DNA from: an uncultured Chloroflexia bacterium
Lineage (GTDB): Bacteria; Chloroflexota; Limnocylindria; Limnocylindrales; CSP1-4
Assembly: GCA_963748625.1 (NCBI GenBank)
Contig: CAVVJT010000004.1
Span: 1-64,000 of the forward strand
Direction: 5' to 3'
Length of the DNA stretch: 64,000 nt
Position numbers and translations under genes: made by a program. Each line of letters starts with the position of its first letter. Positions within the stretch are counted from its first letter, which is position 1. This document shows positions 13,893 to 34,071 of this stretch, in pieces. The notes beneath the pieces were generated by a model that saw only the letters and a list, made by a program, of their open reading frames with translations, was not told where the DNA came from and did no database searches.

Positions 13893-13957
13893 TCGCGCCC
13901 CCGGACGGACTCGCGGACTCGGAAGCCAAAACCGCAGGCCGGCACTCGTGGTACGCG
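13893..13957 (+). repeat. att-like junction R1 (tRNA-Arg 3'-end copy plus TGGTAC tail)
   Basis: TcGCGCCCCCGGACGGA matches the tRNA core 16/17; TGGTACGCG at 13949 (+56). Confidence 0.7.
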
Positions 13958-13989
13958 ATGACGTGCGACGCGCCCAATAGGATGGCGCC

Positions 13990-14655
13990 ATGACAGTCGA
14001 CCTCGAGGACCTCCGCCTCGCCATCTACACGTCCCTTGCCACAACCGGACGCGCGCCTGACACCACGGCGCTGGTGACGGTCCTCCGGGCCGGCCCGGGC
14101 GAAGTCGAGGCAGGTCTGCGAGAGCTCGCCGCCGCCCGGCACCTCGCGCTGGACGCGGACGGCCACGTCGTACTCGCGCATCCCTTCTCCACGATCGACC
14201 TCGGCTTCTCGGTGAAGGGCAGCCACACGCTCTGGTGGGGCGGCTGCATCTGGGACTCGTTCGCGATCCCCCACCTCGTGCCGGACGAGCCGGAGGTCCT
14301 CGTCGCCACGACCTGCCGGGGCTGCGGGCGGGCGCACGCCTGGGTCGTGGGCCGCGACGCGCCGCCTGCGGGCGACCAGCTCGCCCACTTCCTGGTCCCG
14401 GCCGCACACATGTGGGATGACGTCGCCTTCACGTGCGGCAACCAGCGGGTCTTCTGCGACGACGACTGCCTCGACACCTGGCTCGCCCGGGAGGGCCACG
14501 AGCGTGGATATGCGACGGATCTCGCCACCGTGTGGCGCCTCGCGAGCGGCTGGTACGCGGGCCGGCTCGACCGCGGCTACGTCCGGCGCGAGCCCGCGGC
14601 GGCCCTCGAGTACATGCGCAGCGTCGGACTCTCTGGGGCGTTCTGGGGGCTTTGA
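13990..14655 (+). CDS. Organomercurial lyase MerB-like protein
   Basis: N-terminal wHTH; AHPFS, WGGCIWD (compare MerB WCALD), TCRGC, TCGNQRVFC. Confidence 0.8.
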   Translation: MTVDLEDLRLAIYTSLATTGRAPDTTALVTVLRAGPGEVEAGLRELAAARHLALDADGHVVLAHPFSTIDLGFSVKGSHTLWWGGCIWDSFAIPHLVPDEPEVLVATTCRGCGRAHAWVVGRDAPPAGDQLAHFLVPAAHMWDDVAFTCGNQRVFCDDDCLDTWLAREGHERGYATDLATVWRLASGWYAGRLDRGYVRREPAAALEYMRSVGLSGAFWGL

Positions 14656-14845
14656 AGGCGCGCAGATCGCGAACCGGTGACCGGAGGGACGCTGCGGCCT
14701 GCCCCGAACCTTGACTGTCGACGGCCGCGCACTGCTGCTCGCCTGGTCCGCTCATGGCTGACGAGCGGACCTCATCCCCTGTGAACGTCCGCGGCGTCCG
14801 GCTCCACCCTTGCGCGAACGAGGTCCCGGCAGCGAACATCAGGCT

Positions 14846-15190
14846 ATGCAGATCGTTGCCGGACAGATCACCGTGGATGCCCTCACCGCCATGGCCGAGG
14901 CCACGTTTGGCGATCTTGTCAAGGCCGTCGTCGACGTGAGCCGGGGCCTTCTCGCGGTTGACGCCGGCATGCACAGCGACCTGGAGGCGCTGTTGCTCGA
15001 CGCGGGGTCGCGCCAGGGCGACCTCTGGGGCATCAACTTCTACCCGGCCGAGTTCGGCACCGCGGGGTTCCTCGAGTTCGACTCGATGATCAACCTTCGG
15101 CCGGGTCAAGGAAACCGGACGCGTTCGGTTGACGACCCCGCTGCGCGCGCTGCGATCGAGGAGCTCGTCGGCAAGGTGGTGGTCCCGTGA
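14846..15190 (+). CDS. DUF5674 family protein
   Basis: FGDLVKAVVD...MHSDLEALLL..GS.Q..LWGIN..P...EFDSMINLRP.QGNR signature. Confidence 0.8.
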   Translation: MQIVAGQITVDALTAMAEATFGDLVKAVVDVSRGLLAVDAGMHSDLEALLLDAGSRQGDLWGINFYPAEFGTAGFLEFDSMINLRPGQGNRTRSVDDPAARAAIEELVGKVVVP

Positions 15191-15519
15191 CCCTCCACCC
15201 GGATCTCGTGCCGGAGCGCTGGGAGAGGTTGACGCTCGCCGAGCAGCTCGGGAATGCCGGTGCGGACGTCGGACGGGCGATCAGGGCACGCGACGCCGGG
15301 AACGAGAGCCGCTGTGCGGCCGCCCTCGCGAGGGCCCTCGCCCAGCTCGATCTCACCCTCGCCGACCCCCGCTGGGCCGGCCATCGCCGGCGCGAACTTG
15401 CCCGTGCCCGAGAGGTCGTCTGCGACCTCCTCGCCGGCGACAACGTCTACGGTTCGACACCGGCCCAGACCGAGGCGTGGTTCATGGCGTACGCCGCACA
15501 GGCTCGCGCTGGACGCTGA
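15187..15519 (+). CDS. Conserved helical hypothetical protein coupled to DUF5674
   Basis: GTGA overlap with the upstream gene; RWERLTLAEQLGN...ELARAREVVCD...GDNVYGST. Confidence 0.75.
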   Translation: MTLHPDLVPERWERLTLAEQLGNAGADVGRAIRARDAGNESRCAAALARALAQLDLTLADPRWAGHRRRELARAREVVCDLLAGDNVYGSTPAQTEAWFMAYAAQARAGR

Positions 15520-15739
15520 CTCTACGGTCGATCAAGAACGGGCGGCTTTCCGCCGGGCCGTCGCCACGAGCGCCCGCACGTGCGGGTCCGGGTTCGAAGT
15601 CCTCCAGCCAACAGGATCTCCGCGGGCAGCATGCCGTCGACCGGGCGTCGCAGTGCGGATCATCAGGTCAAGCGTCGCTCGAGATGATCGATAAGCCGCA
15701 CTGTCGCCTCGATGCCGGGCTGTCGCCTACCCTTCGCCC

Positions 15740-16285
15740 ATGACGAAGTACGTGGTGCTCCTGCGCGGCATCAACGTCGGCGGCAAGAACCTGGTGTCGA
15801 TGGCTCGCCTGCGCGAAGTGCTCGAGGAGCTGGGCTACGCGAATATCGTCACGTACATCGCGAGTGGCAACGTGATCCTGCGCTCAAGACGGGGGCCGGA
15901 TCGAATCAGGCGCGAGATCGAGGCCACCCTGCCCACGGCCTTCACGCTCCACAGCGAGCTCGTCGCCGTCCTGGTGCTGAGCGCGGCCCAGCTTCGGGCC
16001 GTCGTCGAGAACCGTCCGAAGGGCTTCGGCGATGAGCCCGATCGCTATCACAGTGACGCGATCTTCCTGATGGGGATCGACGCGACAGCGGCGATGGCGC
16101 TGTTCGACCCGCGACCCGGCGTCGACACCGTGTGGCCGGGCGATGGCGTGATCTACGCACAGCGACTGAGCGCGGAACGCACGAAGAGTCGCCTGAGCAG
16201 GATCGTGGCCAGTCCGATGTACCTGTCGATGACGATCCGAAGCTGGGCCACCACGACCAGGCTCGCGGAGCTCGTCGCGGAGTGA
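15740..16285 (+). CDS. DUF1697 domain protein
   Basis: YVVLLRGINVGGKN...V.TYIASGNVI...TIRSWAT. Confidence 0.9.
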   Translation: MTKYVVLLRGINVGGKNLVSMARLREVLEELGYANIVTYIASGNVILRSRRGPDRIRREIEATLPTAFTLHSELVAVLVLSAAQLRAVVENRPKGFGDEPDRYHSDAIFLMGIDATAAMALFDPRPGVDTVWPGDGVIYAQRLSAERTKSRLSRIVASPMYLSMTIRSWATTTRLAELVAE

Positions 16286-16487
16286 GGTGAGTCGGGTCCA
16301 GCCGGTCACGTCCAACCTCGCGAACGAGGAGGGCGCCGGCTGGGAGCCCGTCGCCCGGTGACCACTGGATGGGCTCGAGAGCGCTCGGACTGACCGTGTC
16401 GCGTTCCGCCCCAGCACATGCTCACGGTCCTTGACGTCTGGCGGAGCGTTGGGCACGGTGCCCAGAACAACCTGCGAGGAGGCACCG

Positions 16488-16874
16488 ATGGAGCAAGCTC
16501 GACCGATGGTGGTCCGGCCCGGTGAGGGTGTCCAGCCAGCCGGCCTGCCCACGCCCGGAATGGACCGTCGCCAGCTCTTGGACCATGAGGATTGCTGGGT
16601 GGGTTGGGTGCGGACCGATGCCGGACTCGCCGGCGGCTGGCACCACCATGGAGCGCGCGACTCCTACATCTACGTGCTCCGCGGCACGGTGACGATCGAA
16701 TACGGTCTCGCGGGGCTCGAGCGGGTGACGGCCGTGGCCGGGGACTTCATCTTCAATCCCGCCCGGATGGTGCATCGCGAGATCACTGCCCCCGACGAGC
16801 CGGCAGATCTCTTCGTCGTCCGCGTTGGGACCGGGCCGCAGAACGTCAACGTCGACGGCCCGGATGTCGTGTGA
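16488..16874 (+). CDS. Cupin domain protein
   Basis: GWHHHG...YIYVLRG and GDFIFNPARMVHRE; GAGGAGG RBS. Confidence 0.85.
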   Translation: MEQARPMVVRPGEGVQPAGLPTPGMDRRQLLDHEDCWVGWVRTDAGLAGGWHHHGARDSYIYVLRGTVTIEYGLAGLERVTAVAGDFIFNPARMVHREITAPDEPADLFVVRVGTGPQNVNVDGPDVV

Positions 16875-17094
16875 ACTCGCCAGACTTGGCCCGTGAGCGT
16901 GGCAGGCACCTGTCACGTGCGTCTCCGCGTGGTTCTCACAGACGCACGAGGCGAGCCGCACGGGCCGGTCCGTACATCTCAGCCGGCGTCGTCGAGAACG
17001 TGGTCGTGCGACAGGAGGTGTCAGGAGACGGAGCTCAGGGTGGGACAATCAGCCGGACAGCACGTTCCGAAGATCGGCCCGTAGAGAGGTCCTG

Positions 17095-17421
17095 ATGAGC
17101 CAGCCGAGCCGCCGAGTGCTACGCCACGTCGTCCTGTTCGCCTTCAACGAGACGGCGACCCCCGACCAGCTCCAGGCCATCGAACAGGCCTTCACCGCCC
17201 TGCCGGCCCAGATCGCCGAGATCAAGGACTATGAGTGGGGCACCGATGTGAGCGTCGAGAACCTGGCCGATGGCTACACGCACTGCTTCCTGGTCACCTT
17301 CGCGAGCCTGCCCGACCGGGACACCTACCTGGTCCATCCCGCCCACCAGGCGTTTGTCGCCGGGCTCCAACCTCACCTGGCCAAAGCGTTGGTCATCGAC
17401 TACTGGACTGGCAGGCTGTAG
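17095..17421 (+). CDS. Dabb family (stress-responsive A/B barrel) protein
   Basis: LRHVVLFAF...EWGTDVS.E....GYTHCFLVTF...YLVHPAHQAF...VIDY. Confidence 0.92.
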   Translation: MSQPSRRVLRHVVLFAFNETATPDQLQAIEQAFTALPAQIAEIKDYEWGTDVSVENLADGYTHCFLVTFASLPDRDTYLVHPAHQAFVAGLQPHLAKALVIDYWTGRL

Positions 17422-17528
17422 CCGGCTTCACTTCCGCTTCCAGTCGCTCCAGGCGCTCCAAGCGCTCCGCGGTCGATCCCACCCGGAACCCGCCTGCTCG
17501 CTCGTTCTACGAGGCGGTTGCGTTGCTG

Positions 17529-17608
17529 TGGCGCCCCCGCGCGGTCTTGGAGGAGCGGCAGGCCCCACCGAGGACCCGCTCGCGTGGTACGCCGCGTTCG
17601 CCGGGTGA
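17529..17608 (+). repeat. att-like junction R2
   Basis: Degenerate core TGGCGCCCCCGcgCGG; TGGTACGCC at 17585 (+56); reads VAPPRGLGGAAGPTEDPLAWYAAFAG*. Confidence 0.7.
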
Positions 17609-17692
17609 CCGTGTCACGGCGCAGCCGCCGCGACCGTCCCGCCCGCGGACAGGGCACAGCGAACCGATCGCGCCCCAGCGAGAGGTGGTCGT

Positions 17693-19273
17693 GTGACGAA
17701 GCTGCGGCATTTCGCGGAGCACCTTGGAGTCGCGGGCATCATCCTCGCGCTCGTCGCCGGGTGCTCCCTGGCACCAGTCACCTCGTCGCAGTCGGCCGAA
17801 ACTGCGACCCCACCTTCGCCCGCGATGGTCGCTCCGACGCCAGCCCCGTCTGCCACGTCGATGGCGGTCTCCGCGGCGTCGCCTCCCGCGTCCCCGAGGG
17901 AGGCGCCACAGGCGCAACGGTGGCGTCTCCAAGTGGGCCCCGCCGCCGGGTTGGGCCCGACAACCGGAGTCGCCGTCGGCGGGATGGTGAGCCTGGACAA
18001 CCAGTGGGCCAGCCTGTCGGACAGTGACTGCGGCGGTGTCGGGTTCGAGAATGCGGGCGCGCCAGAGCGAGCCACGGTCATCAAGTTCGTGCTGCCGGAG
18101 GTCCCGGTAGGTGCACACCCAGTCCGGGCCACCCTCCTGATCCACGACGCCACGCCGGACGCGCTCGGCCGGATGAGCGTGACCGGCTACACGGGGCAAG
18201 GGAGCTATGGCGGCCCGCCACCTACCGCGCCAACGGGCTCGATCCTGGTCACTCCCGCAGCATCGGCCGGGCGCGACTCGTGGGACGTTACCGCGTTGGT
18301 CACCGAAGACTCGCTCGAGTTCGGGCTGGTCGGCTTCTGGCTTCGCCTTGAGCCCGACGTGATCGGCCTCCACCGCTTCACGTGCTCCGGCACGACGCTT
18401 GGACCCATTCTCACGGTCGAGTACGTCGGCGACCCGGATCCCGGTCCGGCCGAGGGCCAGCTTCGCGTCGGGGGCGATCTGGGCACCTCCAACGAGCTCC
18501 GCAAGGCGGACGAGGACGACGGTTGGTGGTTCCCCACGAGCTGGCTCTGCGGCGAGGTCGGCCGGGATGTCGCGTCGGGGATGGAGGCCAGGCTTGCGGT
18601 CGGCTTCAAGCTCGCTGGCCTGCCCTCTGAGGCGATCGTCACGGGTGCCACGCTCGCACTCTATGACGGGAACCCGGGTGCACCGGGCGCCGTCGCAATC
18701 GAGGGGTACCTGAGCCCCGGTATGACCTTCGGCGACGGGCTTCGCGATGGGGAGCCCCTCGAACCTACCGGACGCGTGGTCATCAGACCAAACGACGGCG
18801 ACCGTGAGATCTGGGTGGTCGATGCCCTTGTGACACCGCCCATGGTTGCCGGAGGGCGGGCCGACTTTCTTCTCCGTGCAGCCGACGAGACCGATGGCCT
18901 CCACGAGTTCGCCTGTGCACGTGAGCCGAAGTTCCCGATCCTCACGCTCAGCTATCGAGTCGAGGACGCCACCCCGACGACGCAGGCCAGCCCGCACGAA
19001 GTGCTGGCGCCGGGAAGTTGGATGGTCACCCTCGGGGACACCCTCCGCGTCCGATCGCAGCCGCGTATCTCCGACGACTCGAAGATGTACGAGCCGCTGC
19101 TGCCGAAGGGGACGAACTTCTCGATCATCAGCGGCCCGGTGTTCGCTTCCGGCTACTGGTGGTACCGGGTGGAGCTCGCGGCGGGAGTGCTTCACGGCGG
19201 GATCACGCAAGGCTGGGTCGCGGAAGGCGACCACGACGGGACGCCGTGGATCAAGAACATCGGGATCGACTAG
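17693..19273 (+). CDS. Lipoprotein with duplicated beta-sandwich domain and C-terminal SH3-like domain
   Basis: Lipobox LVAGC; Pro/Ala linker; two C-G...F.L......ATL..(H/Y)D...W.V.ALVT...F.C...PILT..Y repeats; LRVRSQP...GPV...GYWWYRV...GWVA. Confidence 0.75.
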   Translation: MTKLRHFAEHLGVAGIILALVAGCSLAPVTSSQSAETATPPSPAMVAPTPAPSATSMAVSAASPPASPREAPQAQRWRLQVGPAAGLGPTTGVAVGGMVSLDNQWASLSDSDCGGVGFENAGAPERATVIKFVLPEVPVGAHPVRATLLIHDATPDALGRMSVTGYTGQGSYGGPPPTAPTGSILVTPAASAGRDSWDVTALVTEDSLEFGLVGFWLRLEPDVIGLHRFTCSGTTLGPILTVEYVGDPDPGPAEGQLRVGGDLGTSNELRKADEDDGWWFPTSWLCGEVGRDVASGMEARLAVGFKLAGLPSEAIVTGATLALYDGNPGAPGAVAIEGYLSPGMTFGDGLRDGEPLEPTGRVVIRPNDGDREIWVVDALVTPPMVAGGRADFLLRAADETDGLHEFACAREPKFPILTLSYRVEDATPTTQASPHEVLAPGSWMVTLGDTLRVRSQPRISDDSKMYEPLLPKGTNFSIISGPVFASGYWWYRVELAAGVLHGGITQGWVAEGDHDGTPWIKNIGID

Positions 19274-19341
19274 GTCGCCGCGCCAACCGTCCAGCGGGAC
19301 CCCTGCCTTTGCGGATCCGGCGCGCTGCGACCCGGCCCCGC

Positions 19342-19509
19342 AAGTTGGCCGACCTCTACGGCTGGGACGACTACGGCTGGGACGACAGGGAGGAGGTCGA
19401 GTACCGCAAGGCCAAGACCGAGGCCGCGCTCGCGGCGCTCCCGACCGACAGCGACCGGCTGGTGCTATTCGACTCCCACCGGGCACGGATCGCGAGTCTG
19501 GGCGACGAG
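19342..19509 (+). pseudogene. Probable large serine recombinase C-terminal (coiled-coil) remnant
   Basis: KLADLYGWDD...EYRKAKTEAALAALP..DRLVLFD resembles the KL..LY..G....EY...K...L coiled-coil of large serine recombinases; contains a 15-bp tandem duplication at 19356-19385. Pattern recall, not a database hit. Confidence 0.5.
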
Positions 19510-19580
19510 CAAACCGGACGACGCCCTCGCGTGGTTCGCGACCGGATACCCAGGGCCCCCTGGACGCTCCAGCTGGCGGG

Positions 19581-19992
19581 TTATGCCGTCGGGTCCAGGA
19601 GGGGCACCCCAGTCCGCACGACATCCCGCGTGTTGCGGGTGACGAGCGTCAGTCCATGAACGCGAGCCGTGGCCGCGAGCAGCCCGTCGACCGTGGGCAC
19701 TGGGTACTGGGACGTTGAGCCTCCCCCACTCTTCGGCCACCGTGCGATCCACAGGCAGGATGCGATCGGCGAAGCCATCGGTCAGGGCGGCAAGCCAGTG
19801 CTCCAGCGCCAGCGAGGACGGGACGTCCCGCCGGCGAAGCGACTCGATCCCGCGCCGGATCTCTCCGATCACGAGGACACTCGTGAACAGGGTGTCCTCG
19901 TCGGCGTCAGTGAACCAGGCGCGGAGCCGCGGGTCGGCACGCTCCCCCTTCCGCAGCTCGGAGACGATGTTCGTGTCGAGCAACCAGCTCAC
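19581..19992 (-). CDS. vapC: VapC/FitB PIN toxin (one +1 frameshift near 19705)
   Basis: WLLDTNIVSELRK...IGEIRRGIE...EEWGRLNVP, then PVPTVDGLLAATARVHGLTLVTRN in the next frame. Confidence 0.88.
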
Positions 19993-20222
19993 GCGAGGTC
20001 CCGCGGCAGGTCGCGGTCGAACACGAAGTCCTCGTCAGCACCGACGTCGGGCATGGATGCCAGGGCCTGTTTGAACGACGCCCGGGCGAGATCACCCCGG
20101 AGCGCCTCCCGCAGGATCTCGCGGTGCTCCGCCTCCGCCGACCGGCCATGCCGCGAGGCGCGCCGCTTCAGGGCACGGGCAATGTCGTCATCCACGTTGC
20201 GCACGATCAACTGCCTGACCAT
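19989..20222 (-). CDS. FitA-like ribbon-helix-helix antitoxin
   Basis: QLIVRNVDD....ALKRRA..HGRSAEAEHREIL; overlaps the toxin start; GGAGG RBS. Confidence 0.9.
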   Translation of the reverse strand: MVRQLIVRNVDDDIARALKRRASRHGRSAEAEHREILREALRGDLARASFKQALASMPDVGADEDFVFDRDLPRDLA

Positions 20223-20234
20223 CGCCACCTCCAG

Positions 20235-20251
20235 TGATAGCAATGATAGCA
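20235..20251 (-). promoter_or_regulatory. Putative FitA operator: two direct TGCTATCA octamers
   Basis: Minus strand reads TGCTATCA-T-TGCTATCA immediately before the RBS; same octamer as the Neisseria FitAB half-site. Confidence 0.65.
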
Positions 20252-20293
20252 CCCGCACTGGATTCTTCGCCTGGCCGGACCCCGTCTTGGTTT

Positions 20294-20364
20294 TGGCGCC
20301 CCCGGACGTATTCCAGCCCCCAATACCCACGCAGCGTTCTCAACTGGTACCTCGAGGTCGGGTG
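20294..20364 (+). repeat. att-like junction R3
   Basis: TGGCGCCCCCGGACGtATTCcAgCC extends the match into the tRNA T-arm; TGGTAC at 20345 (+51); tail SVLNWYLEVG*. Confidence 0.75.
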
Positions 20365-20469
20365 AGTGGGCTTCCCGGTCGTCCGACGCCGGACACGGGT
20401 CGTGACCTGTAGCACTTGCCGGCACGTCCCCGCCAATCGATCATGTTCGATCAAGTCGCAGGGAGGACC

Positions 20470-21227
20470 ATGGCGAGGCGAGCGGAGTGGCTGCTGGCGG
20501 CGGGCCTCGTGGCTGGCGCGGCCCTTGTGTGGCTCGCCCAGTACCTGGGTGAGGCAGTCGGCCCCCTGGCCTGGCTCGGTGGTGGCCTGCTCCTCTTCGT
20601 CTCGATGCTCGGGCTCCTGCTGCTCGGGGCCATCGACCATCACGGGACGCATCTACCGGCGCTGGACGTGGCGGCCCACGCAGTCTCTGGCCGTGGGGCA
20701 GGCCGAGTACGGGCGACAGCTCGCGACCTCCAGGACCGAGCGGACCCTGAAGACGCCGGGTGGACCTGGCACCTCGTGGGTCACCTCCCTGGCTCATCCG
20801 CAAGGGACGGCTCGTTCCATGCTCCACCCTCGAGGTCACCTTCACCGTGGGGTCCGACCTTGGCCGCACGGCGCAGGCGGTGATGTCCGCCCTGGTCTCT
20901 CCTGGCTGGGAGGCCGCCGCTACCGACACGGTGGTCGACAACATGGGCGAGGCCGTGCATGTGACACGCGCCCCGGCGGGGCCGGTCGATCCTGACGCCA
21001 CGTACCTCGGCCAGGAGGCCGTCGGCGGCCTGACCCGGAGTCCCCGTGTGATCGTGCGCGCGTCGCTCCGAAAGGCGGGGCCGGCATCGACCGCGATCAC
21101 CCTGTCGGGCGCCTGCAGCACCTCGATGTGGGGCGAGAAGCGGGCAGCCGTGCACCTCGCGGACGCGCTCAACATGCTGATCGACCGCACCTTGGCGCTG
21201 GTGGGTGTGCAAGCGCCAGCACGCTGA
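20470..21227 (+). pseudogene. Membrane-anchored hypothetical protein with two +1 frameshifts
   Basis: GGGAGG RBS and two TM helices. Removing one base near 20636 and one near 20758 joins three ORF pieces into one frame ending at 21227. Confidence 0.55.
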
Positions 21228-21234
21228 GGGGTAC

Positions 21235-21323
21235 TGGCGCCCCCGGACGGACGCCGGGGCCCGCGAAGCAAAGCCGACGACGCGCTGACTTGGTACGCCG
21301 CAGATGTTCGTCAGCCGGTGTGA
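21235..21323 (+). repeat. att-like junction R4
   Basis: Perfect 17-nt core followed by CGCCGGGGCCCGCGAAGCAAA; TGGTACGCC at 21291 (+56). Confidence 0.9.
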
Positions 21324-21450
21324 ATCCGCAAGGCCCCGCTGCGAGATGGCCGGCAATCGGGTCGACTGGCACGATCGCCTGCCTGCCCGGGGCCGCGCCT
21401 CCAGTGTCAGCGACTGCCAAGTTCGGCTCGGTCTCGACCACGGCCGCGGA

Positions 21451-22308: not shown

Positions 22309-22591
22309 CGCGAAAGCGCCTCCGTGGGCTGGCGGCCGGAACGGCGTCCCGGGATCTGCGTCGAGCAGACCATGCCGGCAGGGTCCCGGCATCGCCTGAT
22401 TCGGTCGGAGTTGGCTTTCGCGTCGCCTGGCGCCGCGGGGCCCGCAGTCTCGCGGCCGTCGCCTGCGTACGGCTGCCTCGACAAGCTCGGTTTCCGGCAC
22501 GTGCCCACGTGCCGGGCAGGAACTGGCGCTCCCGGACGGGCGCGAGCACAAGGCGGTGGATCGGCTCGCCTGGTCGCGTCGACGTGAACGA

Positions 22592-23257: not shown

Positions 23258-23283
23258 GTCGTGAGTATCCGCCGTTGTGGAAG

Positions 23284-23315
23284 TGACCGCCAGTCAGTAG
23301 AATGACCATCGGTCA
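23284..23315. promoter_or_regulatory. Tandem TGAC-N5-GTCA palindromes (putative TetR operators)
   Basis: TGACCGCCAGTCA (23284-23296) and TGACCATCGGTCA (23303-23315) between the divergent tetR and membrane genes. Confidence 0.65.
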
Positions 23316-25230: not shown

Positions 25231-25259
25231 GGCATGGTCGAATGTACCGCGCGCGGGGC

Positions 25260-25478
25260 TCAGTCCTTGGAGCCGGTCGCTCCCTTGATGGAGTCGCTGA
25301 TGTCCGCGAGTGCGTGCTGGGCATCGCCGACGGTCTTCTGCACCTTGCCAGTGAGCTGGTCGACCTGGCCCTCGGACTTGAGGCTCGAGTCGCCCGTGAG
25401 GTCGCCGACGCCTTCCTTGACCTTGCCCTTGACCTGGTTGAGGCTGCCCTCGAGCTGCTTGTCGTTCATGGTGCCCAT
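25260..25478 (-). CDS. CsbD family protein
   Basis: QVKGKVKEGVGDLTGD..LKSEGQVDQ..GKVQ. Confidence 0.9.
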   Translation of the reverse strand: MGTMNDKQLEGSLNQVKGKVKEGVGDLTGDSSLKSEGQVDQLTGKVQKTVGDAQHALADISDSIKGATGSKD

Positions 25479-25488
25479 CCTCTGCTGA

Positions 25489-27777
25489 CTACTTGAGGTC
25501 GATCACGATCTTGCTGAGCGCGCCCGTGAACTTGTAGGGCACGTCGTAGGACATGTCCACCGGCGTTCCCGTGTCCTCGCCGACGTCCAGCGTTTCCTCC
25601 GTGGAGAAGCGGAACGGGATCGTCCGCTCCACGCGCACGCTTGTGACCTCGACGTCGTCCACGAGGACCGACGCCGTGCCGCCCTTGCCCACGCCCCCGC
25701 CGTCGTAGGCGAAGTCCATGACGACCGAATGCCTGCCGGCGGGCACGGGATCGGCTGCGACACCGCGGTAGTTCGAGCCGTTGGCATGGGTGTAGCTGAA
25801 GACCGGCCTGCCGTCCTCGAAGTAGAGCGCCCAGCCGCCGAACAGGCCGCCCTGCGTCGCGATGACGCCGGACTCGCCGCCCGCGACGGTGACGTCGGCG
25901 GTGAGCGACCAAGAGCGGTTCTTGATGTTGGGCGCGGCGCCCTCCGGGATCCGCTTCAGGCCCGCCGTGTAGGTGAAGGAGGCGCGGTCGCCGGTCAGGT
26001 TGGGCCGGATCCCGTCGCCGAACCGCTCGGCGGCGGACGTGTCGATCGGCAGCACGTTGAACTTGGCCGCTTCCGCGTAGAAGCGGACCTGCATCTCGCG
26101 CAGCTTCTCAGGCATCTCCGCGGCGAGGTCATCGGCCTGGGAGAAGTCCTCGTCGATGTTGTAGAGCTCCCACTTCGTGGTCAGCACGTCCATGGCGGTG
26201 CCGACGCCGCTCCACGGCAGGCGCACGGGCGTCGTCGAGGCGAACCAGCCGTCGTGGTAGACCCCGGAGTTGCCGAAGATCTCGAAGTACTGCGTGTGCC
26301 GCCGCCCCTTGGCCTCGCCGTCGTCGAACGTGTAGGCCAGGCTGACGCCCTCGATGGGGTGCTGGGTCACGCCGTTCACCATGTTCGGCTGCGGCAGCCC
26401 GGCCACCTCGAGGATGGTCGGCACGATGTCGATGACGTGGTGGAACTGGGAGCGGATCTCGCCGCGGGCCTTGATGCCCGCAGGCCAGGACACGACCATG
26501 CCGTTGCGCGTGCCGCCGAAGTGGCTGGCCACCTGCTTGCACCACTGGAACGGCGTGTTCATCGCCCAGGCCCACGCCACCGGGTACAGGTTGGACGACT
26601 TCCAAGTGCCGAAGTCGGCGAGGCGGCTCTCCTTGTAGTCGAGGGTCTCCTCGGTCTGGGCGACGACGTTCATGTCGTTGAAGGAGCCCTTGAGCGAGCC
26701 CTCGCCGGCCGCGCCGTTGTCGCCCACGATGTAGATCACGAGAGTGTTGTCGGTCTGGCCCAGGTCGTCGACGGCGTCCAGCACCCGGCCGAGGTTGTAG
26801 TCGGCCTGCGCGAGGTGCGCGGCTGCGAGCTCCATCATGGCCGCGTAGACCTTCTGCTCGCGCGGGCTGGCCTCGTCCCAGGCGGGGATCTCCTTGGGCC
26901 TCGGTGTCAGGTTGGCATCAGGCGGGATGACGCCCAGCTCCTTCTGGCGCGCGAAGGTCTCCTCGCGCACCCTGTCCCAGCCCTGGTCGAACTGGCCCTT
27001 GAACTTCGCAATCCACTCGGGCGTGGCCTGCTGCGGCGCATGGCCGGCGGCCGTGGCGTAGTAGACGAAGAACGGCTTGTCCGGGGCCATCGTCTTCTGC
27101 ATCGTCATCCAGCCGATGGCCTGGTCGGCGAGGTCGAAGTCGAGGTTGTACTCGGGCTTGCCGAGGTAGGGCTCGATCGGCGTCGTGCCGTCGTAGAGGG
27201 CCGGCCGCCAGTTGTTGGCGACGCCGCCGAGGAAGCCGTAGAACTTCTCGAAGCCCTGGCTGGTCGGCCAGCGGTCGAAAGGCCCGGCCTGGCTGGACTC
27301 CCAGTCGGGCACGTTGTGGTCCTTGCCGAACCACGCGGTGTTGTAGCCGTTGTGCTTGAGGATCTCGGCGACCGTGACCATGTCGTGGCCGAGCACCGAG
27401 TCGTAGCCCGGATAACCCGTCGCCATCTCCATGACCGCGCCCGTGTGGGCCGTGTGGTGGTTGCGTCCCGTAAGCAGGGCCGCGCGGGTCGGGCTGCACA
27501 CCGCCGTGGTGTGGAAGCGGTCGTAGCGGACCCCGGCGTCCGCGAGGCGCTGGAGGGTCGGCGTCTCGATCGGCCCGCCGAAGGGCGTCGCCGCTCCATA
27601 GCCCACGTCGTCGAGCAGGATGAGCACGACGTTCGGTGCCCCGTCCGGCGCCGCCACCGCGGCCGGGAAGGACGGCGTGGACTCGCTCGCCCGCAGCCCG
27701 ATGGTGCCCCCGAACGGCGCCGGTGGGATCGGCAGGACCGAGCGATCGACGTGCGGGGTTGCGTGCGTTGCGCTCAT
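25489..27777 (-). CDS. Arylsulfatase (Cys-type, formylglycine dependent)
   Basis: PNVVLILLDDVG, CSPTRAALLTGR (CxPxR), FGKDH, GDNG; C-terminal LamG-like domain. Confidence 0.95.
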   Translation of the reverse strand: MSATHATPHVDRSVLPIPPAPFGGTIGLRASESTPSFPAAVAAPDGAPNVVLILLDDVGYGAATPFGGPIETPTLQRLADAGVRYDRFHTTAVCSPTRAALLTGRNHHTAHTGAVMEMATGYPGYDSVLGHDMVTVAEILKHNGYNTAWFGKDHNVPDWESSQAGPFDRWPTSQGFEKFYGFLGGVANNWRPALYDGTTPIEPYLGKPEYNLDFDLADQAIGWMTMQKTMAPDKPFFVYYATAAGHAPQQATPEWIAKFKGQFDQGWDRVREETFARQKELGVIPPDANLTPRPKEIPAWDEASPREQKVYAAMMELAAAHLAQADYNLGRVLDAVDDLGQTDNTLVIYIVGDNGAAGEGSLKGSFNDMNVVAQTEETLDYKESRLADFGTWKSSNLYPVAWAWAMNTPFQWCKQVASHFGGTRNGMVVSWPAGIKARGEIRSQFHHVIDIVPTILEVAGLPQPNMVNGVTQHPIEGVSLAYTFDDGEAKGRRHTQYFEIFGNSGVYHDGWFASTTPVRLPWSGVGTAMDVLTTKWELYNIDEDFSQADDLAAEMPEKLREMQVRFYAEAAKFNVLPIDTSAAERFGDGIRPNLTGDRASFTYTAGLKRIPEGAAPNIKNRSWSLTADVTVAGGESGVIATQGGLFGGWALYFEDGRPVFSYTHANGSNYRGVAADPVPAGRHSVVMDFAYDGGGVGKGGTASVLVDDVEVTSVRVERTIPFRFSTEETLDVGEDTGTPVDMSYDVPYKFTGALSKIVIDLK

Positions 27778-27905
27778 GCGGGGGCTCCCTCGAGGAACGG
27801 GTCGGCTGCCGGCCAGGGCGGATTTGCGCGCACCGTTCTGCGCGAGCAGACAAGGACCGGCCGCCGCGAGCCGTTCGCCGCGACCGGTCCGCGCTGCGTG
27901 GCGAA

Positions 27906-28397
27906 TCAGCTCTGGCTGATGGCCTCGTCGATGTCGGCCTCGACCTCCGCGGGGACCTCGTGGCTCTCGGCGGCGCCGCCGAGCTCGGTCAGCTTGGCCG
28001 AGACGTCGGCCGCCTTGAGGTCGCCCACCAGGACGCCCACCGCCGCCTTGCCGCCCGCGAGCTCGCCCGAGATCCGCTCGCGGTCCTCGGTCTTGAGTCC
28101 CAGGCCCTTGCCGGAGATTGCGCCCAGGACGCCGCCCGCGATCGGCAGGAAGAGCGGGCCGCCGATGAGCGTGCCGAAGAGCACGGTGATCACGATGCCC
28201 GCGCCGGCGCCCTTCGCGGCGGTCGCGACGCGACCCGGCACGGAGCTCTTGAGCTTGCCCTTCTCGTCCACCGTGAGGACCGCGACCGTGTCGAGCGTGA
28301 TGGACTTCTCGGCCTTGTCCCAGGCCTCGAGCGAGGCTGCGGCCGCCTCTGCGGCGGCCTCGTCGGCGAACAGCGCCAGGATGACTTGCTTTGCCAT
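27906..28397 (-). CDS. DUF1269 domain protein
   Basis: VAVLTVDEKGKLK...KGAGAG..., glycine-rich hairpin, EL..GKAAVGVLV. Confidence 0.7.
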   Translation of the reverse strand: MAKQVILALFADEAAAEAAAASLEAWDKAEKSITLDTVAVLTVDEKGKLKSSVPGRVATAAKGAGAGIVITVLFGTLIGGPLFLPIAGGVLGAISGKGLGLKTEDRERISGELAGGKAAVGVLVGDLKAADVSAKLTELGGAAESHEVPAEVEADIDEAISQS

Positions 28398-28654
28398 GTG
28401 GTGGCGAACCCCTCGGTGCCGCCGATCGGGGCCCGGCGGCCTTGGCCTTGGTGTGACGGTGGCGGCTGCCTGCCGCGGCGAACCGCGAGCGTAGAGCCCG
28501 GACTGGCGGTGCGCAAGTCGCTTCCGCGCAGGTATTGTTCGGCCGACAGGGGCCCACGGATGGGTGGGCCGCCGATGCTCCCCGTCCGCCGCCAACGAGG
28601 AAGACCGCGTGCCCACCGCCCACCTCGCGCCGCCCGCACGACGCGGAGGCCACC

Positions 28655-29397
<743 letters not shown>

Positions 29398-29422
<25 letters not shown>

Positions 29423-30957
29423 GGCTCGCCTCCCAGCTCCGGGCCCTCGGGTCCGGCGGGACGGCAGCCCGCGTCGGCTTCATCGCCACATGGCTGGTCG
29501 CGCTTGCCCTGGGCATCGGCGCAGGCCGGGCGTTCGGGGCACTCGGCGTCAAGGGCACGGCGGGCGCGGACCTCCTGACCGTCCTCATCCCCACCCTGAT
29601 CCTCCTCGGCTGGGCGACGGTGCCCGTGTTCCTGCCCGCGGCTGCGGACCAGGTGGCCGACCCGGCGCGCCTGGAGCAGTTCCCGATCAGCGCGCAGGAC
29701 CAGGTCCTCGGCATCCTGCTCGGCGGCCTCATCGCGCCCACGGCCATGTTCACGTTCCTCCTCGCATCGGGTGGAACGCTCCTCGACGGGGCGACCCTCG
29801 GCGTGCGTCTCGTCACTGTGGCCGGGGCCGCGGTCTTCACGATCCTCTGCGTGACCGCGTCGCGCACCATCCAGGCTGTCCTCGCCGGCGCCGTGAACAC
29901 GCGCCGCGGCAAGGATGTCGTGGTGCTGGCCTCTGCCGGCGTCGCGATCGGGATCTACCTGCTCTCCCAGAGCTTCGACACGATCGTGGCCGCGCTCGAG
30001 ACCGGCGACGTCGGTGGCGTGACGGCCCTGCTCTCGTGGCTCCCGACCGGCGCGGCGGGTGGCGCCCATCTCGCGGCGCGCGATGGAGACTGGGCGGGCG
30101 CGATGGTCCGGCTCGTCATCGTGGGGGCCACCGTGCTCGTGCTCCTCGTCGCCTGGATCGGCGCGATCCGCGGCCGCGTCGACGGGAAGGGCGGTGGCTC
30201 GAGCTCCAAGGCGTCGAAGGCGACGGTGTCCGGCCTGCGGCTCATCACCTCGCCCCTTGGCGCCATCGCCCCGTCGGTGGTCACCGCCACCGCCAGCCAG
30301 CAGCTCCGCTACTTCTTCTTCCGCTCGTCCAAGGCGCTCCAGTCGATGACCATCGGGATCGTCTTCGCCGCGCTCATCGCGCTCGGCCTGCCCGCCGACG
30401 CGTCAGCGATGGCCGGGGCCACGGCCGGGATGCTGCTGGTGACCCTGACCGCGCTCAACATGTTCGCCTTCGACGGCCCCGGCTTCGCCTACCTCGTGCA
30501 GGCGGGTGCGCCCTGGCGGCAGGTCATGGCCGGCAAGGCGCTCGGCTGGCTCGTCGTCCTGCTGGGCGGCGTCACGGCGATCACGGTCGCGGGCGCCGTG
30601 ATCCACGGAACCCTGGGGGAGCTGCCCGCCACGTGGCTGACCGGCATGACCGTCGGGCTGGTAGGCATCGGCCTCGGTGCCATGACGAGCATCCTCGGGC
30701 CGTCGAGCAGCGTCGACTCCGGCGGCAAGCCGGGCGCCGGCTCCAAGATCGCCTTCGGTGTCGGGCTCTTCGTCATGTTCCTGGTCATGGTGGGCGTCGC
30801 ACTGGGCGCGTCGATCCTGGGCGCCGCGCTGGGGCCATTTGCCGTCGGTATCACGCTGTTCGTGATCGCGGCAGGGATCGCGATCGTGCTCGTGCGTCTT
30901 GCGGGAACCATGCTCGAGCGGGACCCCTACAGGATCGACCGGGCGCTCAACGGGTAG
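29398..30957 (+). CDS. ABC-2 type exporter permease
   Basis: More than 10 TM helices; overlaps the ATPase gene. Confidence 0.8.
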
Positions 30958-31209
30958 GACCATTCTCCTGCACCGCCGGGACGTGCCCGGGCGAGCGGGC
31001 GGCGCTTGGACACTGCCCAGCGCCAGGACGCGGGTCCGCGGTGCCAGCCGCCTCGCTTGGTCGGCTATCCCGCCTCCGACCGTGGCCACCGCAGGCGCTG
31101 CACCGGGGGACGCGCCGGTGGTGGGCCAGTTGCGGGGAGGCCGACGGCTGCCGTCCGCGTGATCCTGCTCGCAGCGAACACCTCGTTCGCGCCACAGGCA
31201 CTTTGACTA

Positions 31210-31283
31210 TGGCGCCCCCGGACGGACGCCGGGGCCTACGAAGCAAAGCGCTCGACGCGCTCGGCTGGTACGCCACCGCGTGA
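31210..31283 (+). repeat. att-like junction R6
   Basis: Perfect core followed by CGCCGGGGCCTACGAAGCAAA; TGGTACGCC at 31266 (+56); reads MAPPDGRRGLRSKALDALGWYATA*. Confidence 0.9.
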
Positions 31284-31314
31284 TGGACGGGCCCGATGCG
31301 CGCCTCGCGGCTCG

Positions 31315-32220
31315 TCAGGAGTGCGGGGGCTCTTCCGCCGCCATCGCGAACTCGGAACACACGGCGAGGAACACGTTGAGGGCCGGGTTCGCGAGCGAGA
31401 GCCTTGCGGCGAAGCCCATCTCGAGCCTCGCGGGCTTCGGGGCCACGACGCGCGAGAGGTCGAGTTCGTCCGGCGCCATGTGCCAGAGCACGTAGGGCCC
31501 GAGGAACACGGTGTTGGGCGTCCGCAGCTTCCGCGCGACCAAGTCGATCTGGTGGGCGTCGACGGTCGAGGCAGGCGCAACCCCGGCGTCCTCGAGGATC
31601 CCGTGGATGACGTCCATGTACTGCGGGTCCTCGGAGAGCTCGACCAGCGTCAGGTCTCGCAGGTCGGCAAGCGGCCGTCCCTCCGGCCGTGCGCCCTCGC
31701 CGCGGGCCGCGAAGAAGTACAGCTCGCCGTAGCTCAGGTGCTGGAACAGGAAGCGCTCGGGCGGCAGCGCTGACGTCCGCATGATCAGGCCGACGTCGAG
31801 CGACCCGTCGAGGACGCCCTCGACGACCTGGTGGGCCTGGAGCGAGCGCACGGACAGGCGCAGGTGGGGGTAGCGCTCCTCCATCGCTGCGAGGATGGGG
31901 TCCAACTGCTCGTGGAGCCCGTAGTACGGCGCGCCGATGGTGAGCGACCCGGCGATGCCTGCCCGACGGGCGTCCACCTCCGCCTTCAGACCGCCGTACA
32001 GATCGAGGATCTCCCGGAAGCCCCCGAGGCACCGCTGCCCCACGTCCGTCAGGACGACCGAGTGCGTGGTCCGGTCGAGGAGCTGGGTGCCGAGCTCCTG
32101 CTCGAGGTCCTGGACGTGCTTGGTCAGCGTCGGCTGCGAGACGTACAGACGGTTCGCGGCGACCGTGTAGTTCAGCGTCTCGGCGAGCATCACGAACTCG
32201 GCCATGTGCTCGAGCTTCAC
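31315..32220 (-). CDS. LysR family regulator
   Basis: LAETLNYTVAANRLYVSQPTLTKHVQDLEQELGTQLLDR; GTG start after GGAGGAGG. Confidence 0.92.
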   Translation of the reverse strand: MKLEHMAEFVMLAETLNYTVAANRLYVSQPTLTKHVQDLEQELGTQLLDRTTHSVVLTDVGQRCLGGFREILDLYGGLKAEVDARRAGIAGSLTIGAPYYGLHEQLDPILAAMEERYPHLRLSVRSLQAHQVVEGVLDGSLDVGLIMRTSALPPERFLFQHLSYGELYFFAARGEGARPEGRPLADLRDLTLVELSEDPQYMDVIHGILEDAGVAPASTVDAHQIDLVARKLRTPNTVFLGPYVLWHMAPDELDLSRVVAPKPARLEMGFAARLSLANPALNVFLAVCSEFAMAAEEPPHS

Positions 32221-32440
32221 GCCTCTGCCACGCCTCCTCCTCCAGCCTCCGCGCCCGACGCACATGACTCTACCGATGATCGTGCGCCGCGGCATGACTT
32301 CATCGGAGATCTTCATTTCCCCTTCCGGAAGCGGCCTCGTAGGCTCGGCGCAGCGACCTGGAGTGGGCGCGCCGTGCGCGGCACGGGCCGACCCGACGCG
32401 ATCACGGAGACTCCGGGCGACACGTTGAAAGGGCTCGTCG

Positions 32441-33821
32441 ATGTCGGAGCGATACCTCAAGCAGACGCCGTATGTGCCGTACGACAAGGACGTCTTCACC
32501 TGGGTCATGAGCGAGGGCGGCCCGATCGCCACGTTCAGCGGTGGCGGCTTCCACCCCTACGAGTACACCGGGTGGCAGGACGAGTGCCTGTCCTGGCACG
32601 AGAGCTGCTTCATCCACGCCGGCCTCAACCCGACGACGACGGCCATCGTCAAGGGCCCCGACGCGCTCAAGATGTTCTCGGACCTGTGCGTGAACAGCTT
32701 CGCCAAGTTCGAGATCGGCCGCTCCAAGCACGCCATCATGTGCGACGAGTTCGGCAAGGTCGTCATCCACGGCGCCCTCCAGAGGCTGGCCGAGGACACC
32801 TTCCGCACCTACTGGCTGTGGCCCTGGGTCGAGTTCGCGGCGCAGCGCGGCAACTACGACGTCGAGGTCGAGAACCTCACCGGCAAGGTCTTCCTCTACC
32901 AGCTCGGTGGCCCCCGCTCGCTCGAGGTGGTCGAAGCCGCGGCCGGCGTCGACCTGCACGACCTCAAGTTCCTCGCCTTCACCGACACCGAGATCGACGG
33001 TCACAAGGTGACCGTCTTCCGAAATCGGCATGTGCGGCACGCTCGCCTACGAGGTGCACGGCGCGATCGAGGACGCCATCCCGGTCTACGAGGCACTGCT
33101 CAAAGCCGGCGAGGCGTTCGGGATCCGCAGGATGGGCCGTAACGCCTACCGCGTGGTCCACACGGAGGGCGGCTTCCCGCAGATCTACTACCACTGGCCG
33201 TTCTCCATCTGGCCGGGCCTGATGGAGTTCGTGGGAGCGCAGGAGGACATCTACGGTCTGGCGCCGTTCTTCTTCACCGGCAGCTCGGACCCGGACTACC
33301 TGGCACACCTGCGGAGCCCGATCGAGCTCGGCTGGTCGCACATGGTCAAGTTCGACCACGAGTTCACGGGCCGCGCCGCGCTTCAGGCCGAGATGGCCGC
33401 CCCGAGGCGGGCCATGGTGACGCTCGAGTGGAATCCTGACGACATCCTGGGCATCTACCAGTCCCAGTTCAACCGCGAGACCGCGGCCACGCCGATGGGC
33501 TGGTCGGACGACTTCGACTTCTACCACGGCAACGGGAACGTCCACGTCGACAAGGTCGTGGACAGCGACGGCAACACCATCGGCCTGAGCTCGGGCCGCA
33601 TGTTCAGCCCGTTCTACCGCCAGATGATCTCGCTCTGCTCGATCGACGTGGCCTACGCGAAGCTCGGCACCGAGGTCACACTCGTGTGGGGCGAGCGCGG
33701 CACGCCCCAGCGGAACATCCGTGCCACCGTCGCCCGGTTCCCCTACGTCGACGAGGGCCGCAATGAGAAGGTCGACACCAACACGATCCCGAGGCTCGCG
33801 GTCGCGCAACCCGTCGGCTAA
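32441..33821 (+). CDS. THF-dependent aminomethyltransferase family (LigM/DesA-like O-demethylase); +1 frameshift near 33023
   Basis: PYEYTGWQDE.LSW..., YQLGGPRSLEV, R-IGMCGTLAYEVHG, VKFDHEFTGR, RQMISLCSID; extra A in CGAAATC. Confidence 0.85.
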
Positions 33822-33863
33822 CCGCCAACACGATCCAGCAGCGCGGTCCAAGTTGACATATCA

Positions 33864-33892
33864 GCAGGGCCTGCCCACCGGGCAGGCCCTGC
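33864..33892. terminator. 13-bp GC hairpin, probable terminator
   Basis: GCAGGGCCTGCCC-ACC-GGGCAGGCCCTGC followed by GATTCGTTT. Confidence 0.65.
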
Positions 33893-33995
33893 GATTCGTT
33901 TCGCTCTCTTGAGGCCCCAAACCCTGAGACGCGACGGAGCCGCGGGCCTTGACAGGGCGACAACGTCGCACATGCTCATGGGTTGGGCTGGAACT

Positions 33996-34071
33996 TGGCG
34001 CCCCCGGACGGATTCGAACCGCCGACGCCAGCCTTAGGACGGCTGCGCTCTATCCACTGAGCTACGGGGGC
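33996..34071 (-). tRNA. tRNA-Arg(CCT)
   Basis: GCCCCCGTAGCTCAGTGGATAGAGCG CAGCC-GTCCTAA-GGCTG ... GGTTCGAATCC ... GGGGGCGCCA; 76 nt with encoded CCA. Confidence 0.97.

Follow-up and report, generated by a model that had tools for sequence, protein, structure and literature searches.

In Dehalococcoides, genomic islands stand in tandem at ssrA with 20-bp direct repeats of the 3' end of this gene, and insertion takes place in the T-loop, as described by McMurdie et al. (2011; PMC3146451). In the same description, the islands encode a CcrB-like serine recombinase of ~540 aa, DsiB, whose gene always overlaps the attachment site (att) with its 3' end and finds its stop codon in the neighboring island or in the target; 15 islands without the integration module were proposed to be cis-mobilizable (PMC3146451). 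These ssrA islands, found in the same phylum (Chloroflexota), are the closest precedent for the locus analyzed here, an array of small gene units at 13.9–34.0 kb of a 64,000-nt stretch of DNA (the window; C4:1-64000) from an uncultured soil or freshwater Chloroflexota bacterium. The array lies downstream of tRNA-Arg(CCT), and we consider it, with a probability of about 0.8, to be a decayed stack that arose by serial integration of large serine recombinase (LSR) elements at this tRNA gene. The assembly to which the window belongs comprises 4.63 Mb in 10 contigs, with 71% G+C.

Other described systems share single traits with this locus. In the tycheposons of Prochlorococcus, successive integrations on the tRNA side push older elements inward, and the account given in this preprint includes partial tRNA copies, degenerated elements and an LSR in 27/937 cases (bioRxiv 10.1101/2020.12.28.424599). 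The integration of serine recombinase elements into tRNA genes is presented as rare by Ghinet et al. (2011; PMC3218068), with Mycobacterium tRNA-Leu and the tRNA-Ser of phiRSM1 as examples, and the statement on this point in the Islander paper (2014) is that serine recombinases at tRNA genes are unknown. We found no description in the literature of arrays such as the present one in Limnocylindria or at tRNA-Arg.

Displaced tRNA ends and recombinase codons at the junctions

The last 17 nt of tRNA-Arg(CCT), hereafter called the core, were found as exact copies at 21235, 24132, 31210 and, within the tRNA gene itself, 33996. Copies with 1 mismatch lie at 13893 and 20294 and a copy with 3 mismatches lies at 17529, all of them on the + strand. 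This mismatch scan confirmed the six recurrences of the tRNA 3' end on which the original prediction for this DNA was built. An additional displaced core with 2 mismatches and its own tail was located at 22524, between the genes for enoyl-CoA hydratase and TetR, and an additional junction without core consists of a tail only (19503-19547), which gives 8 junctions in the window. Core-like matches at 27702 and 27640 were rejected as chance matches, with the tail missing at both. Altogether, at least nine small units (U1 to U6 and their subdivisions; Table 1) are stacked between 13.9 and 34.0 kb. The unit sizes predicted earlier (2786, 7078, 2897, 941, 2765, and 3636 bp) are consistent with the core coordinates, but the division into six units is too coarse, as the core at 22524 splits the 2897-bp unit of enoyl-CoA hydratase and TetR and the tail at 19503 splits the 2765-bp unit. 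The claim that all copies are intergenic is true of the gene calls, but there are two close cases: the core at 21235 starts 8 nt past the stop codon of the U3 open reading frame (ORF), and the core at 20294 overlaps just an unsupported 5' extension of the FitA ORF. The ORF upstream of the core at 24132 stops 40 nt short of it.

Such copies might belong to a generic dispersed repeat, of the type of repetitive extragenic palindromes (REP) or miniature inverted-repeat transposable elements, or recur by chance, given a G+C-rich core in a genome of 71% G+C. We assign virtually no probability to this reading. The window held 10 matches with ≤3 mismatches to the core, compared to 2.0 ± 1.5 in 100 shuffled sequences, and 0/100 shuffles reached the observed count. 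Across the 4.63-Mb genome, 4/4 exact cores lie in this array, as do 6/7 copies with ≤1 mismatch, the remaining one being at C7:344207. The profiles of the core, the tails and the L1 module described below match nothing but the array in the 4.6 Mb, so that core plus tail is not a genome-wide REP element, and the copies all lie on the same strand downstream of one tRNA.

The displaced cores each carry on their right a tail of ~60 nt, which is common among the copies and absent from the tRNA (alignment). The profile of tail class A matched at 31210, 24132, 21235, 13895, 17529, 19503, and 22524, and that of tail class B at 20294; neither profile had a match in the genome outside the array, and viral contigs gave no match to core plus tail A. 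The open frame from the core to the motif D-x-L-x-W-Y-A is kept in 29 of 48 tails, with motif codons that vary synonymously (4 Leu, 4 Ala, 2 Asp, and 2 Tyr codons). In line with this coding pattern, the tail is the C-terminal coding end of an LSR gene, with its final ~20 codons ending in DxLxWYA and the stop codon. In each of the tail classes, of which there are three, tail and core together make up a short dyad centered on core nt 15-16, as read directly from the sequences: GCCCCCGG, 7 nt, CCGGGGC for tail A; CCGGA, 5 nt, TCCGG for tail B; and GGAC, 1 nt, GTCC for the type found in the related genome G006. Element and tRNA remain identical up to nt 16-17 in elements of the G006 type and up to nt 17-18 with tail A, and in one tail-B copy (G004) the identity reaches ~nt 25. 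The junctions combine a copy of the tRNA end, LSR codons and a short dyad centered on the core.

The relatives used for comparison are Chloroflexota metagenome-assembled genomes (MAGs) of the same genus (G numbers; their loci bear L numbers). Of these, 70 were scanned for the exact core, and DNA downstream of the tRNA was taken from 19 genomes and then from 12 more, together with extra G004 contigs. The exact core was present in 58/70 genomes, and 21/70 had 2-4 exact copies. Multiple cores on one contig were clustered on a single strand, and the reversed pattern, scanned as a control, was absent from every genome. Additional cores followed by tails of these classes were found in 9 of the first 19 genomes and in all later genomes, which had been preselected for multiple core copies. 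The content of the units downstream of tRNA-Arg(CCT), which the original prediction proposed to compare, differs between relatives, and the unit size ranges from 604 bp to 8.9 kb, many units being composed of one or two genes (0.6-1.6 kb).

Pfam analysis of 99 ORFs from 24 loci of the relatives' arrays revealed complete LSRs (Resolvase, Recombinase, and Zn_ribbon_recom domains) in G006 (530 aa) and G051 (649 aa) and a truncated LSR in G010. The G051 enzyme is 96% identical to that of G006. Both of them, and most of 52 database homologues of the G006 protein, have the domain order PF00239, PF07508, PF13408; by sequence, there is only a distant match to the solved PhiC31 integrase (E 4e-4). In G006, G051, and G010, the LSR gene is the part of its unit closest to the tRNA and is encoded on the other strand, with an ORF that passes through the core and on into the tRNA gene. 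Therefore, the core lies inside the recombinase gene. Left of the core are the penultimate codons of the LSR, and its true last ~20 codons are in the tail, at the opposite end of the element. LSR remnants of all lengths were detected by tblastn directly 5' of cores in 12 genomes (G001, G010, G041, G050, G061, G064, G079, G016, G018, G011, G022, and G004).

The ends of the database homologues agree with this arrangement. Thirty of the 52 end in read-through peptides antisense to a tRNA (..RPRTDSNRRR.., ..PPDG[LF]EPPT.., ..GDSNP.., and ..[FL]EP[PT]T..), 3 close with the tail as in ..GDDALAWYAEAFA, and 19 have ends of unclear type. A recombinase with ..APPDG at the core, as hinted at in the original prediction, is represented by the G010 remnant and by six database proteins with ..APPDG[LF]EPPT... 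The G006 element (8.7 kb) contains one protein with a Resolvase domain, an AAA_25 ATPase, an Mrr nuclease and small family-less ORFs. In G051, the 2.6-kb unit between two cores (L058:2032-4675) is composed of the recombinase gene alone and is the smallest apparently complete element seen.

In the window, the array has kept part of one such gene. The LSR remnant in Table 1 ends in ..RIASLGDE and runs directly into a tail-A remnant (..SKPDDALAWFAT), as seen in the alignment with G011. A deletion of ~110 nt that included the core has fused this remnant to the tail of the next unit. The earlier 2765-bp unit is therefore two units. Shorter candidates were found at other junctions: a weak LSR end remnant upstream of 17529 (..PPARSFYEAVALL followed by WRPR; E 0.45 only with the family profile), 38 nt of last LSR codons adjoining the core at 20294 (..GFFAWPDPVLVL followed by APPD; too short for testing) and a possible end remnant ..TSFAPQAL*L just 5' of 31210, which is a translation reading without statistical support. 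Upstream of the cores at 21235 and 24132, no recognizable LSR remnant was present.

A displaced fragment of a tRNA 3' end in direct orientation, as seen at these junctions, is an Islander-type far-end mark and, in the terms of the Islander paper, the usual signature of islands that tyrosine integrases insert at tRNA genes. That the array consists of such classical islands, later stripped of their integrases, is nevertheless very improbable: the Phage_integrase domain was found in 0/36 window ORFs and in 0/99 ORFs of the relatives' arrays, and the reading frame that crosses the core belongs to LSR genes. The nearest PF00589 match in the genome (C4:69604-70074) is ~35 kb from tRNA-Arg(CCT), on the opposite side. 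It lies outside the window, ~9 kb beyond a tRNA-Pro(GGG) at 60317-60393, and this pair may be a conventional island unrelated to the array.

The only intact LSR of this genome (515 aa; contig C8; L061:850-2408, corresponding to G000 C8:27368-28926) runs into tRNA-Arg(CCG). It was rejected as a trans-acting helper of the array: its 17-nt core and its tail both differ from those at tRNA-Arg(CCT), so there is no reason to assign it to the array. Among the full-length relatives of this LSR, 9/11 overlap a tRNA-Arg gene on the opposite strand (8 CCG and 1 CCT). On contig C7, two displaced copies (~27 nt) of the tRNA-Arg(CCG) end lie 2287 bp apart, at 1271787 and 1274074; they share another conserved tail and have no tRNA beside them. 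They represent another array of this type, distinct from the one at tRNA-Arg(CCT).

Units, cargo, and the L1 end module

At 22/79 junctions, the place of the recombinase end is taken by L1, a block-conserved, non-coding-looking module of 75 nt. It is laid out as TTGACA, a 17-nt spacer, GCACATGCTCA and then GGGTTGGGCAGGAAC; in the copy next to the tRNA, the final block reads GGGTTGGGC.GGAAC and abuts the core. L1 always adjoins the core exactly, with unrelated cargo across the 22 junctions, and its profile gave two matches in the whole genome, both in the array (Table 1). No Rfam family was found for L1, no sigma-70-type site was found in it by consensus scan and no consistent single-strand fold was obtained. 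The native tRNA flank of the sister family (10 genomes) lacked it, as did the region upstream of LSR genes. Units that end in L1, lie next to the tRNA and have exact cores were found in the window and in G060, G064, G073, G080, G046, G044, and G041, and less clearly in G007, G024, and G002. In the window this unit is U6, which had no counterpart in 36 other loci except for a partial LysR match of 45% in G018.

These L1-ended units bear on two further explanations. One is pure erosion, by which every unit once had its own LSR and none ever moved without its own enzyme, L1 and the other ends being deletion scars or fixed sequence. We regard it as somewhat unlikely. It agrees with the LSR remnants of every length beside the cores of 12 genomes and with the junction deletion directly visible in the window, and a deletion across one junction could put any cargo beside a surviving L1. 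However, the blocks of L1 are conserved at 22 junctions whose cargo is unrelated, the module always directly adjoins the core, and no LSR codons can be seen in it. Its copies are no more alike within one genome than between genomes (a reading of the alignment), and the L1-ended units of the window and several relatives are tRNA-proximal with exact cores.

The other explanation is that of the original prediction, an integron-like platform on which the tRNA end serves as an attI-like site and a recombinase acting in trans captures recombinase-less cassettes with attC-like sites. It draws on array units that are free of any recombinase here (0 integrase or resolvase domains in array ORFs by Pfam, which bore out the predicted absence), on the many one- or two-gene units of 0.6-1.6 kb in the genus, on the 22 junctions with a non-coding L1 and no adjacent LSR, and on U6, presumably the youngest unit, which ends in L1 with an exact core and is practically without counterpart elsewhere. 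Against it, a recombinase gene beside the anchor is missing: none of the 36 window ORFs is an IntI-type tyrosine recombinase beside the insertion point, the nearest tyrosine integrase is the distant one mentioned above, and the sole LSR, on contig C8, is associated with tRNA-Arg(CCG) and the core of that tRNA. The tails are recombinase codons and do not look like folded sites of the attC type, and relatives hold recombinase genes inside their units in all stages of decay. In five genomes with L1-ended proximal units, no match to the LSR family was found, although these MAGs are incomplete. No dedicated capture platform of this kind, with a fixed recombinase beside attI, is seen at the locus, and we hold the explanation to be improbable. 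Service in trans as such runs counter to the relatives' units with their own LSR, intact or decayed, but is conceivable for the L1-ended subset.

L1-ended and other LSR-less units have exact cores and tails, as att sites of a related autonomous element, and no recombination or transfer genes, the structure of a cis-mobilizable element (CIME). By analogy, the L1-ended units may be passengers moved with or by a neighboring LSR element, as in a CIME or pseudo-staphylococcal cassette chromosome (pseudo-SCC) element.

Table 1. Features of the tRNA-Arg(CCT) array, listed from the tRNA inward (window positions)
Feature	Position	Strand	Content	Evidence
tRNA-Arg(CCT)	33996-34071	-	Array anchor	ARAGORN; Rfam RF00005, 60 bits
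Core in tRNA	33996-34012		Last 17 nt of the tRNA; + strand reads TGGCGCCCCCGGACGGA	
U6 right end	33920-33995	+	L1 module	nhmmer L1 profile E 1.1e-7; alignment of 22 junctions
U6 interior	31227-33919		Tail A, LysR, GCV_T-family gene	Pfam
U6 GCV_T-family gene	32441-33821	+	Split over two frames	Pfam
U6 LysR	31315-32532	-		Pfam
U6 tail A	31227-31285		Reads RRGLRSKALDALGWYATA and stop	Tail profile E 8e-16
U6 core	31210-31226	+	Exact, displaced	
U5	24132-31209		Exact core + tail A (24132-24205), double MarR, CsbD, sulfatase, DUF1269, ABC ATPase, putative permease	Pfam, tail profile
U4b	22524-24131		Core (2 mismatches) + degenerate tail A (22524-22587), TetR, ORF 23321-24091	Tail profile E 0.004; Pfam
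U4b TetR	22592-23257	-		
U4a right end	22452-22523	+	Second L1 module	nhmmer E 0.003; alignment
U4a	21235-22451		Exact core + tail A (21235-21308), enoyl-CoA hydratase (-)	Pfam, tail profile
U3	20294-21234		Core (1 mismatch) + tail B (20294-20370; frame 0: WRPRTYSSPQYPRSVLNWYLEVG and stop), one ORF	Tail-B profile E 2e-20; translation
U2b	19503-20293		Core-less tail A remnant (19503-19547, ..SKPDDALAWFAT), FitB (PIN)/FitA (-), 38 nt of LSR last codons	Tail profile E 0.002; Pfam PIN, FitA
LSR gene remnant	19252-19531	+	90 residues (family-profile positions 363-452 of 503)	hmmsearch E 2.8e-11; tblastn to G006 LSR E 1e-7
U2a	17529-19251		Core (3 mismatches) + tail A (17529-17597; ..EDPLAWYAAFAG and stop), 526-aa ORF without Pfam family	Tail profile E 3e-5
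U1	13893-17528		Core (1 mismatch) + tail (13893-13964), MerB-like, DUF5674 pair, DUF1697, cupin, Dabb	Pfam, tail profile

The gene content predicted for the units agrees with Pfam (Table 1), and several of their modules recur in other species. For this comparison, tblastn and blastn were used, as the tblastx matches of the array to the relatives were driven by composition (70% G+C) and were discarded. The conserved flank across the tRNA (genes for a globin, a glutaredoxin-like protein, DsbD, and AhpC) shares 69-71% nt identity with G011, G007, G067, G050, and G073 (68-73% in a second comparison). The cargo is more similar: 88.6% for FitAB compared to G011, 85.6% for Dabb compared to G067, 84.0%, 83.3%, and 77.0% for the DUF5674 pair compared to G050, G073, and G007, respectively, and 79.2% for MerB compared to G007. 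The identity of 77-89% in the cargo and 69-71% in the flank indicates that the units move between species. In the relatives, FitAB (921 bp, in G011) and Dabb (604 bp) form separate units, and DUF5674 lies adjacent to the tRNA in G073 and G007. U1 is therefore probably a fusion of several older units with decayed junctions, because its modules form separate units in other species but three of them lie together here.

Some cargo genes of the window seem damaged. The PIN (FitB) ORF at 19465-19992 (-) covers just the first two thirds of the Pfam model, and a 1-nt indel near 19705 relative to the G011 copy suggests that this toxin gene is frameshifted; FitA looks intact. The GCV_T-family (aminomethyltransferase-like) gene of U6, whose two frames overlap, is 97-98% identical to a contig of sequencing run X3 that is without one base at 33022, so the frameshift in the window could be either a mutation of recent origin or an artifact of assembly. 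A terminator-like hairpin with a 13-bp stem (33864-33892) follows this gene, just ahead of L1.

Seven sequencing runs hold ≤8% of the sampled words. Four of them, for which contigs only were used, gave short pieces that were 90-99% alike and that matched U5 (X1 and X2) or U6 (X3 and X5); the listed joints all have sides of <33 nt. Among the metagenome loci around the flanking globin gene, the core was found in 7/80, including contig L093 with 4 copies. In L093, which comes from a further uncultured relative, the four cores lie within 4 kb behind the same tRNA (698, 3135, 4155, and 4765 in the oriented contig). None of the metagenome contigs around the globin gene comes from a strain-level relative, the best match being 83% at the aa level.

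Among the relatives, four species have a unit with one adenylate/guanylate cyclase-STAND ATPase gene (1030-1190 aa; L050:228-3800, L041:171-3602, L043:9384-12476, and L044:3074-6436). Three of these units are ~3.6-3.8 kb long, and the G067 unit (5.9 kb) holds other genes as well. The arrays look enriched in defense-type cargo, that is, in these cyclase-STAND ATPases, in toxin-antitoxin pairs (FitAB and HepT/MNT) and in Mrr.

Proposed history of the array

The serially eroded integrative elements that the original prediction named as its alternative fit these data: the tails correspond to LSR codons, and the LSRs themselves persist, intact or decayed, in relatives. Likewise, the view that the copies are att-site scars of tRNA-directed integration was supported. 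In the history that we propose, the attachment site of the element (attP) would lie inside the 3' end of its recombinase gene, on the strand opposite to the tRNA, and would be made up of a left motif (the LSR codons that directly precede the site), the core (16-17 nt copied from the tRNA end) and the tail (the final ~20 codons). Strand exchange is predicted near core positions 15-16; if it took place at the local GG or GA dinucleotide, the tRNA would be cut within its T stem. The 15-16-nt core copy of the element would then be needed to rebuild the tRNA gene, and the old tRNA end would be pushed, along with the tail, to the far side of the element. The integrated recombinase gene would run antisense into the tRNA and so gain a different C-terminus. 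As the rebuilt junction would share 15 nt with the original target, it would allow further insertion, and elements could stack because this junction still resembles the target. The youngest unit of the resulting array would be the one nearest to the tRNA. In this genome, the LSR genes would later have been deleted, leaving the 90-residue remnant and a few terminal codons, and some junctions would have decayed or been lost.

Several observations weigh against a stack of eroded LSR elements. The genome, which is 98% complete, contains no cognate LSR, and just one of the LSR remnants in the window is statistically supported. A periodicity of three bases could not be demonstrated statistically in tail A (p ~0.14 in the conserved half, none over the whole tail). 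The gradient of decay is imperfect, as the degenerate junction at 22524 sits between exact ones. The distal boundary of the array has no conserved synteny anchor; genes that flank the arrays of relatives (a Cys/Met pyridoxal-phosphate enzyme and DUF2200) are on other contigs here, and the ancestral edge is therefore not fixed. No excision or circle junction was observed in the run contigs, which are short and none of which bridges a junction. An LSR gene or remnant was found beside 0/22 L1-ended junctions. The L1-ended units are not explained by simple erosion, because L1 shows neither similarity to LSR genes nor any LSR codons and has no LSR adjacent to it. The FitAB module ends in LSR-derived sequence here but in L1 in G011.

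More speculatively, the genus may run an LSR-based gene-cassette system, in which LSRs of sibling elements would excise recombinase-less units with a dedicated conserved end (L1, core, and tail) and insert them again at tRNA-Arg(CCT), and in which integration would switch the C-terminus of the enzyme from DxLxWYA to a tRNA-antisense peptide. We put this forward as a tentative idea, possible rather than probable. If it is true, the LSR differs between the free and the integrated state, and an integrated LSR regains its proper tail only with another unit behind it.

Comparison with known systems

In integrons, the tyrosine recombinase IntI acts with attI, which lies beside its gene, and attC sites are imperfect inverted repeats that recombine as folded single strands. 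The tRNA-Arg(CCT) array resembles an integron as an ordered row of small units, mostly promoter-less or single-gene, that are bounded by recombination sites. Unlike in an integron, its junctions are made of serine recombinase gene fragments and a tRNA end, and there is no IntI-type tyrosine recombinase with an attI beside it.

SCC and pseudo-SCC elements are inserted by LSRs at the 3' end of rlmH/orfX and form arrays separated by direct repeats, with recombinase-less members. They use CcrA and CcrB together or CcrC alone and are much larger than the units of the array; to our knowledge, an SCC attP inside a recombinase ORF has not been described. Composite SCC elements and the array thus share LSRs, the 3' end of one conserved gene as the target, short direct repeats and recombinase-less members, but the target of SCC is a protein gene, whereas that of the array is a tRNA gene.

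CIMEs related to ICESt1 and ICESt3 depend on tyrosine integrases, reside at the 3' end of fda and undergo accretion with an autonomous element, and their mobilization has been shown experimentally. The LSR-less units of the array are similarly flanked by att sites and without recombination genes, but their mobilization is hypothetical.

The tycheposons, as the preprint describes them, mostly have tyrosine recombinases and replication modules, and a recombinase ORF that crosses att is not part of that description. Likewise, the account of serine recombinase elements in Ghinet et al. (2011) describes neither arrays of small recombinase-less units nor an att site inside the recombinase gene.

The Dehalococcoides ssrA islands and the array both consist of tandem units behind a tDNA, with direct repeats of its 3' end. 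The target-proximal LSR gene that overlaps att in these islands has its equivalents in the LSRs of the relatives and in the C8 LSR, whereas the window has just a remnant. The differences concern target, size and composition. Dehalococcoides islands use ssrA, which encodes transfer-messenger RNA, and the array uses a true tRNA gene, Arg-CCT. The array units are far smaller (0.6-8.9 kb, many with one or two genes), and neither the six-gene integration module nor the small serine recombinase DsiA of Dehalococcoides was found in the G006 element. The tail of the array is conserved (DxLxWYA), whereas the end of DsiB is called divergent in the description of McMurdie et al. (PMC3146451), a comparison made at the level of that description. 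The L1 end module occurs in the array and not in the Dehalococcoides description.

The comparison has several consequences. A whole family of LSRs reads into tRNA genes, as seen in 30/52 database homologues and, at the DNA level, in 9/11 loci. Its conserved, swappable C-terminal tail offers a testable idea of how LSRs might sense their integration state, and compact pairs of LSR and att, including the 2.6-kb LSR-only element, could be integration tools. For annotation of these MAGs, it would be appropriate to interpret short ORFs and "intergenic repeats" that follow tRNA genes as att scars. The array extends the design of the Dehalococcoides ssrA islands to a true tRNA gene, to a second class of Chloroflexota and to units as small as single genes.

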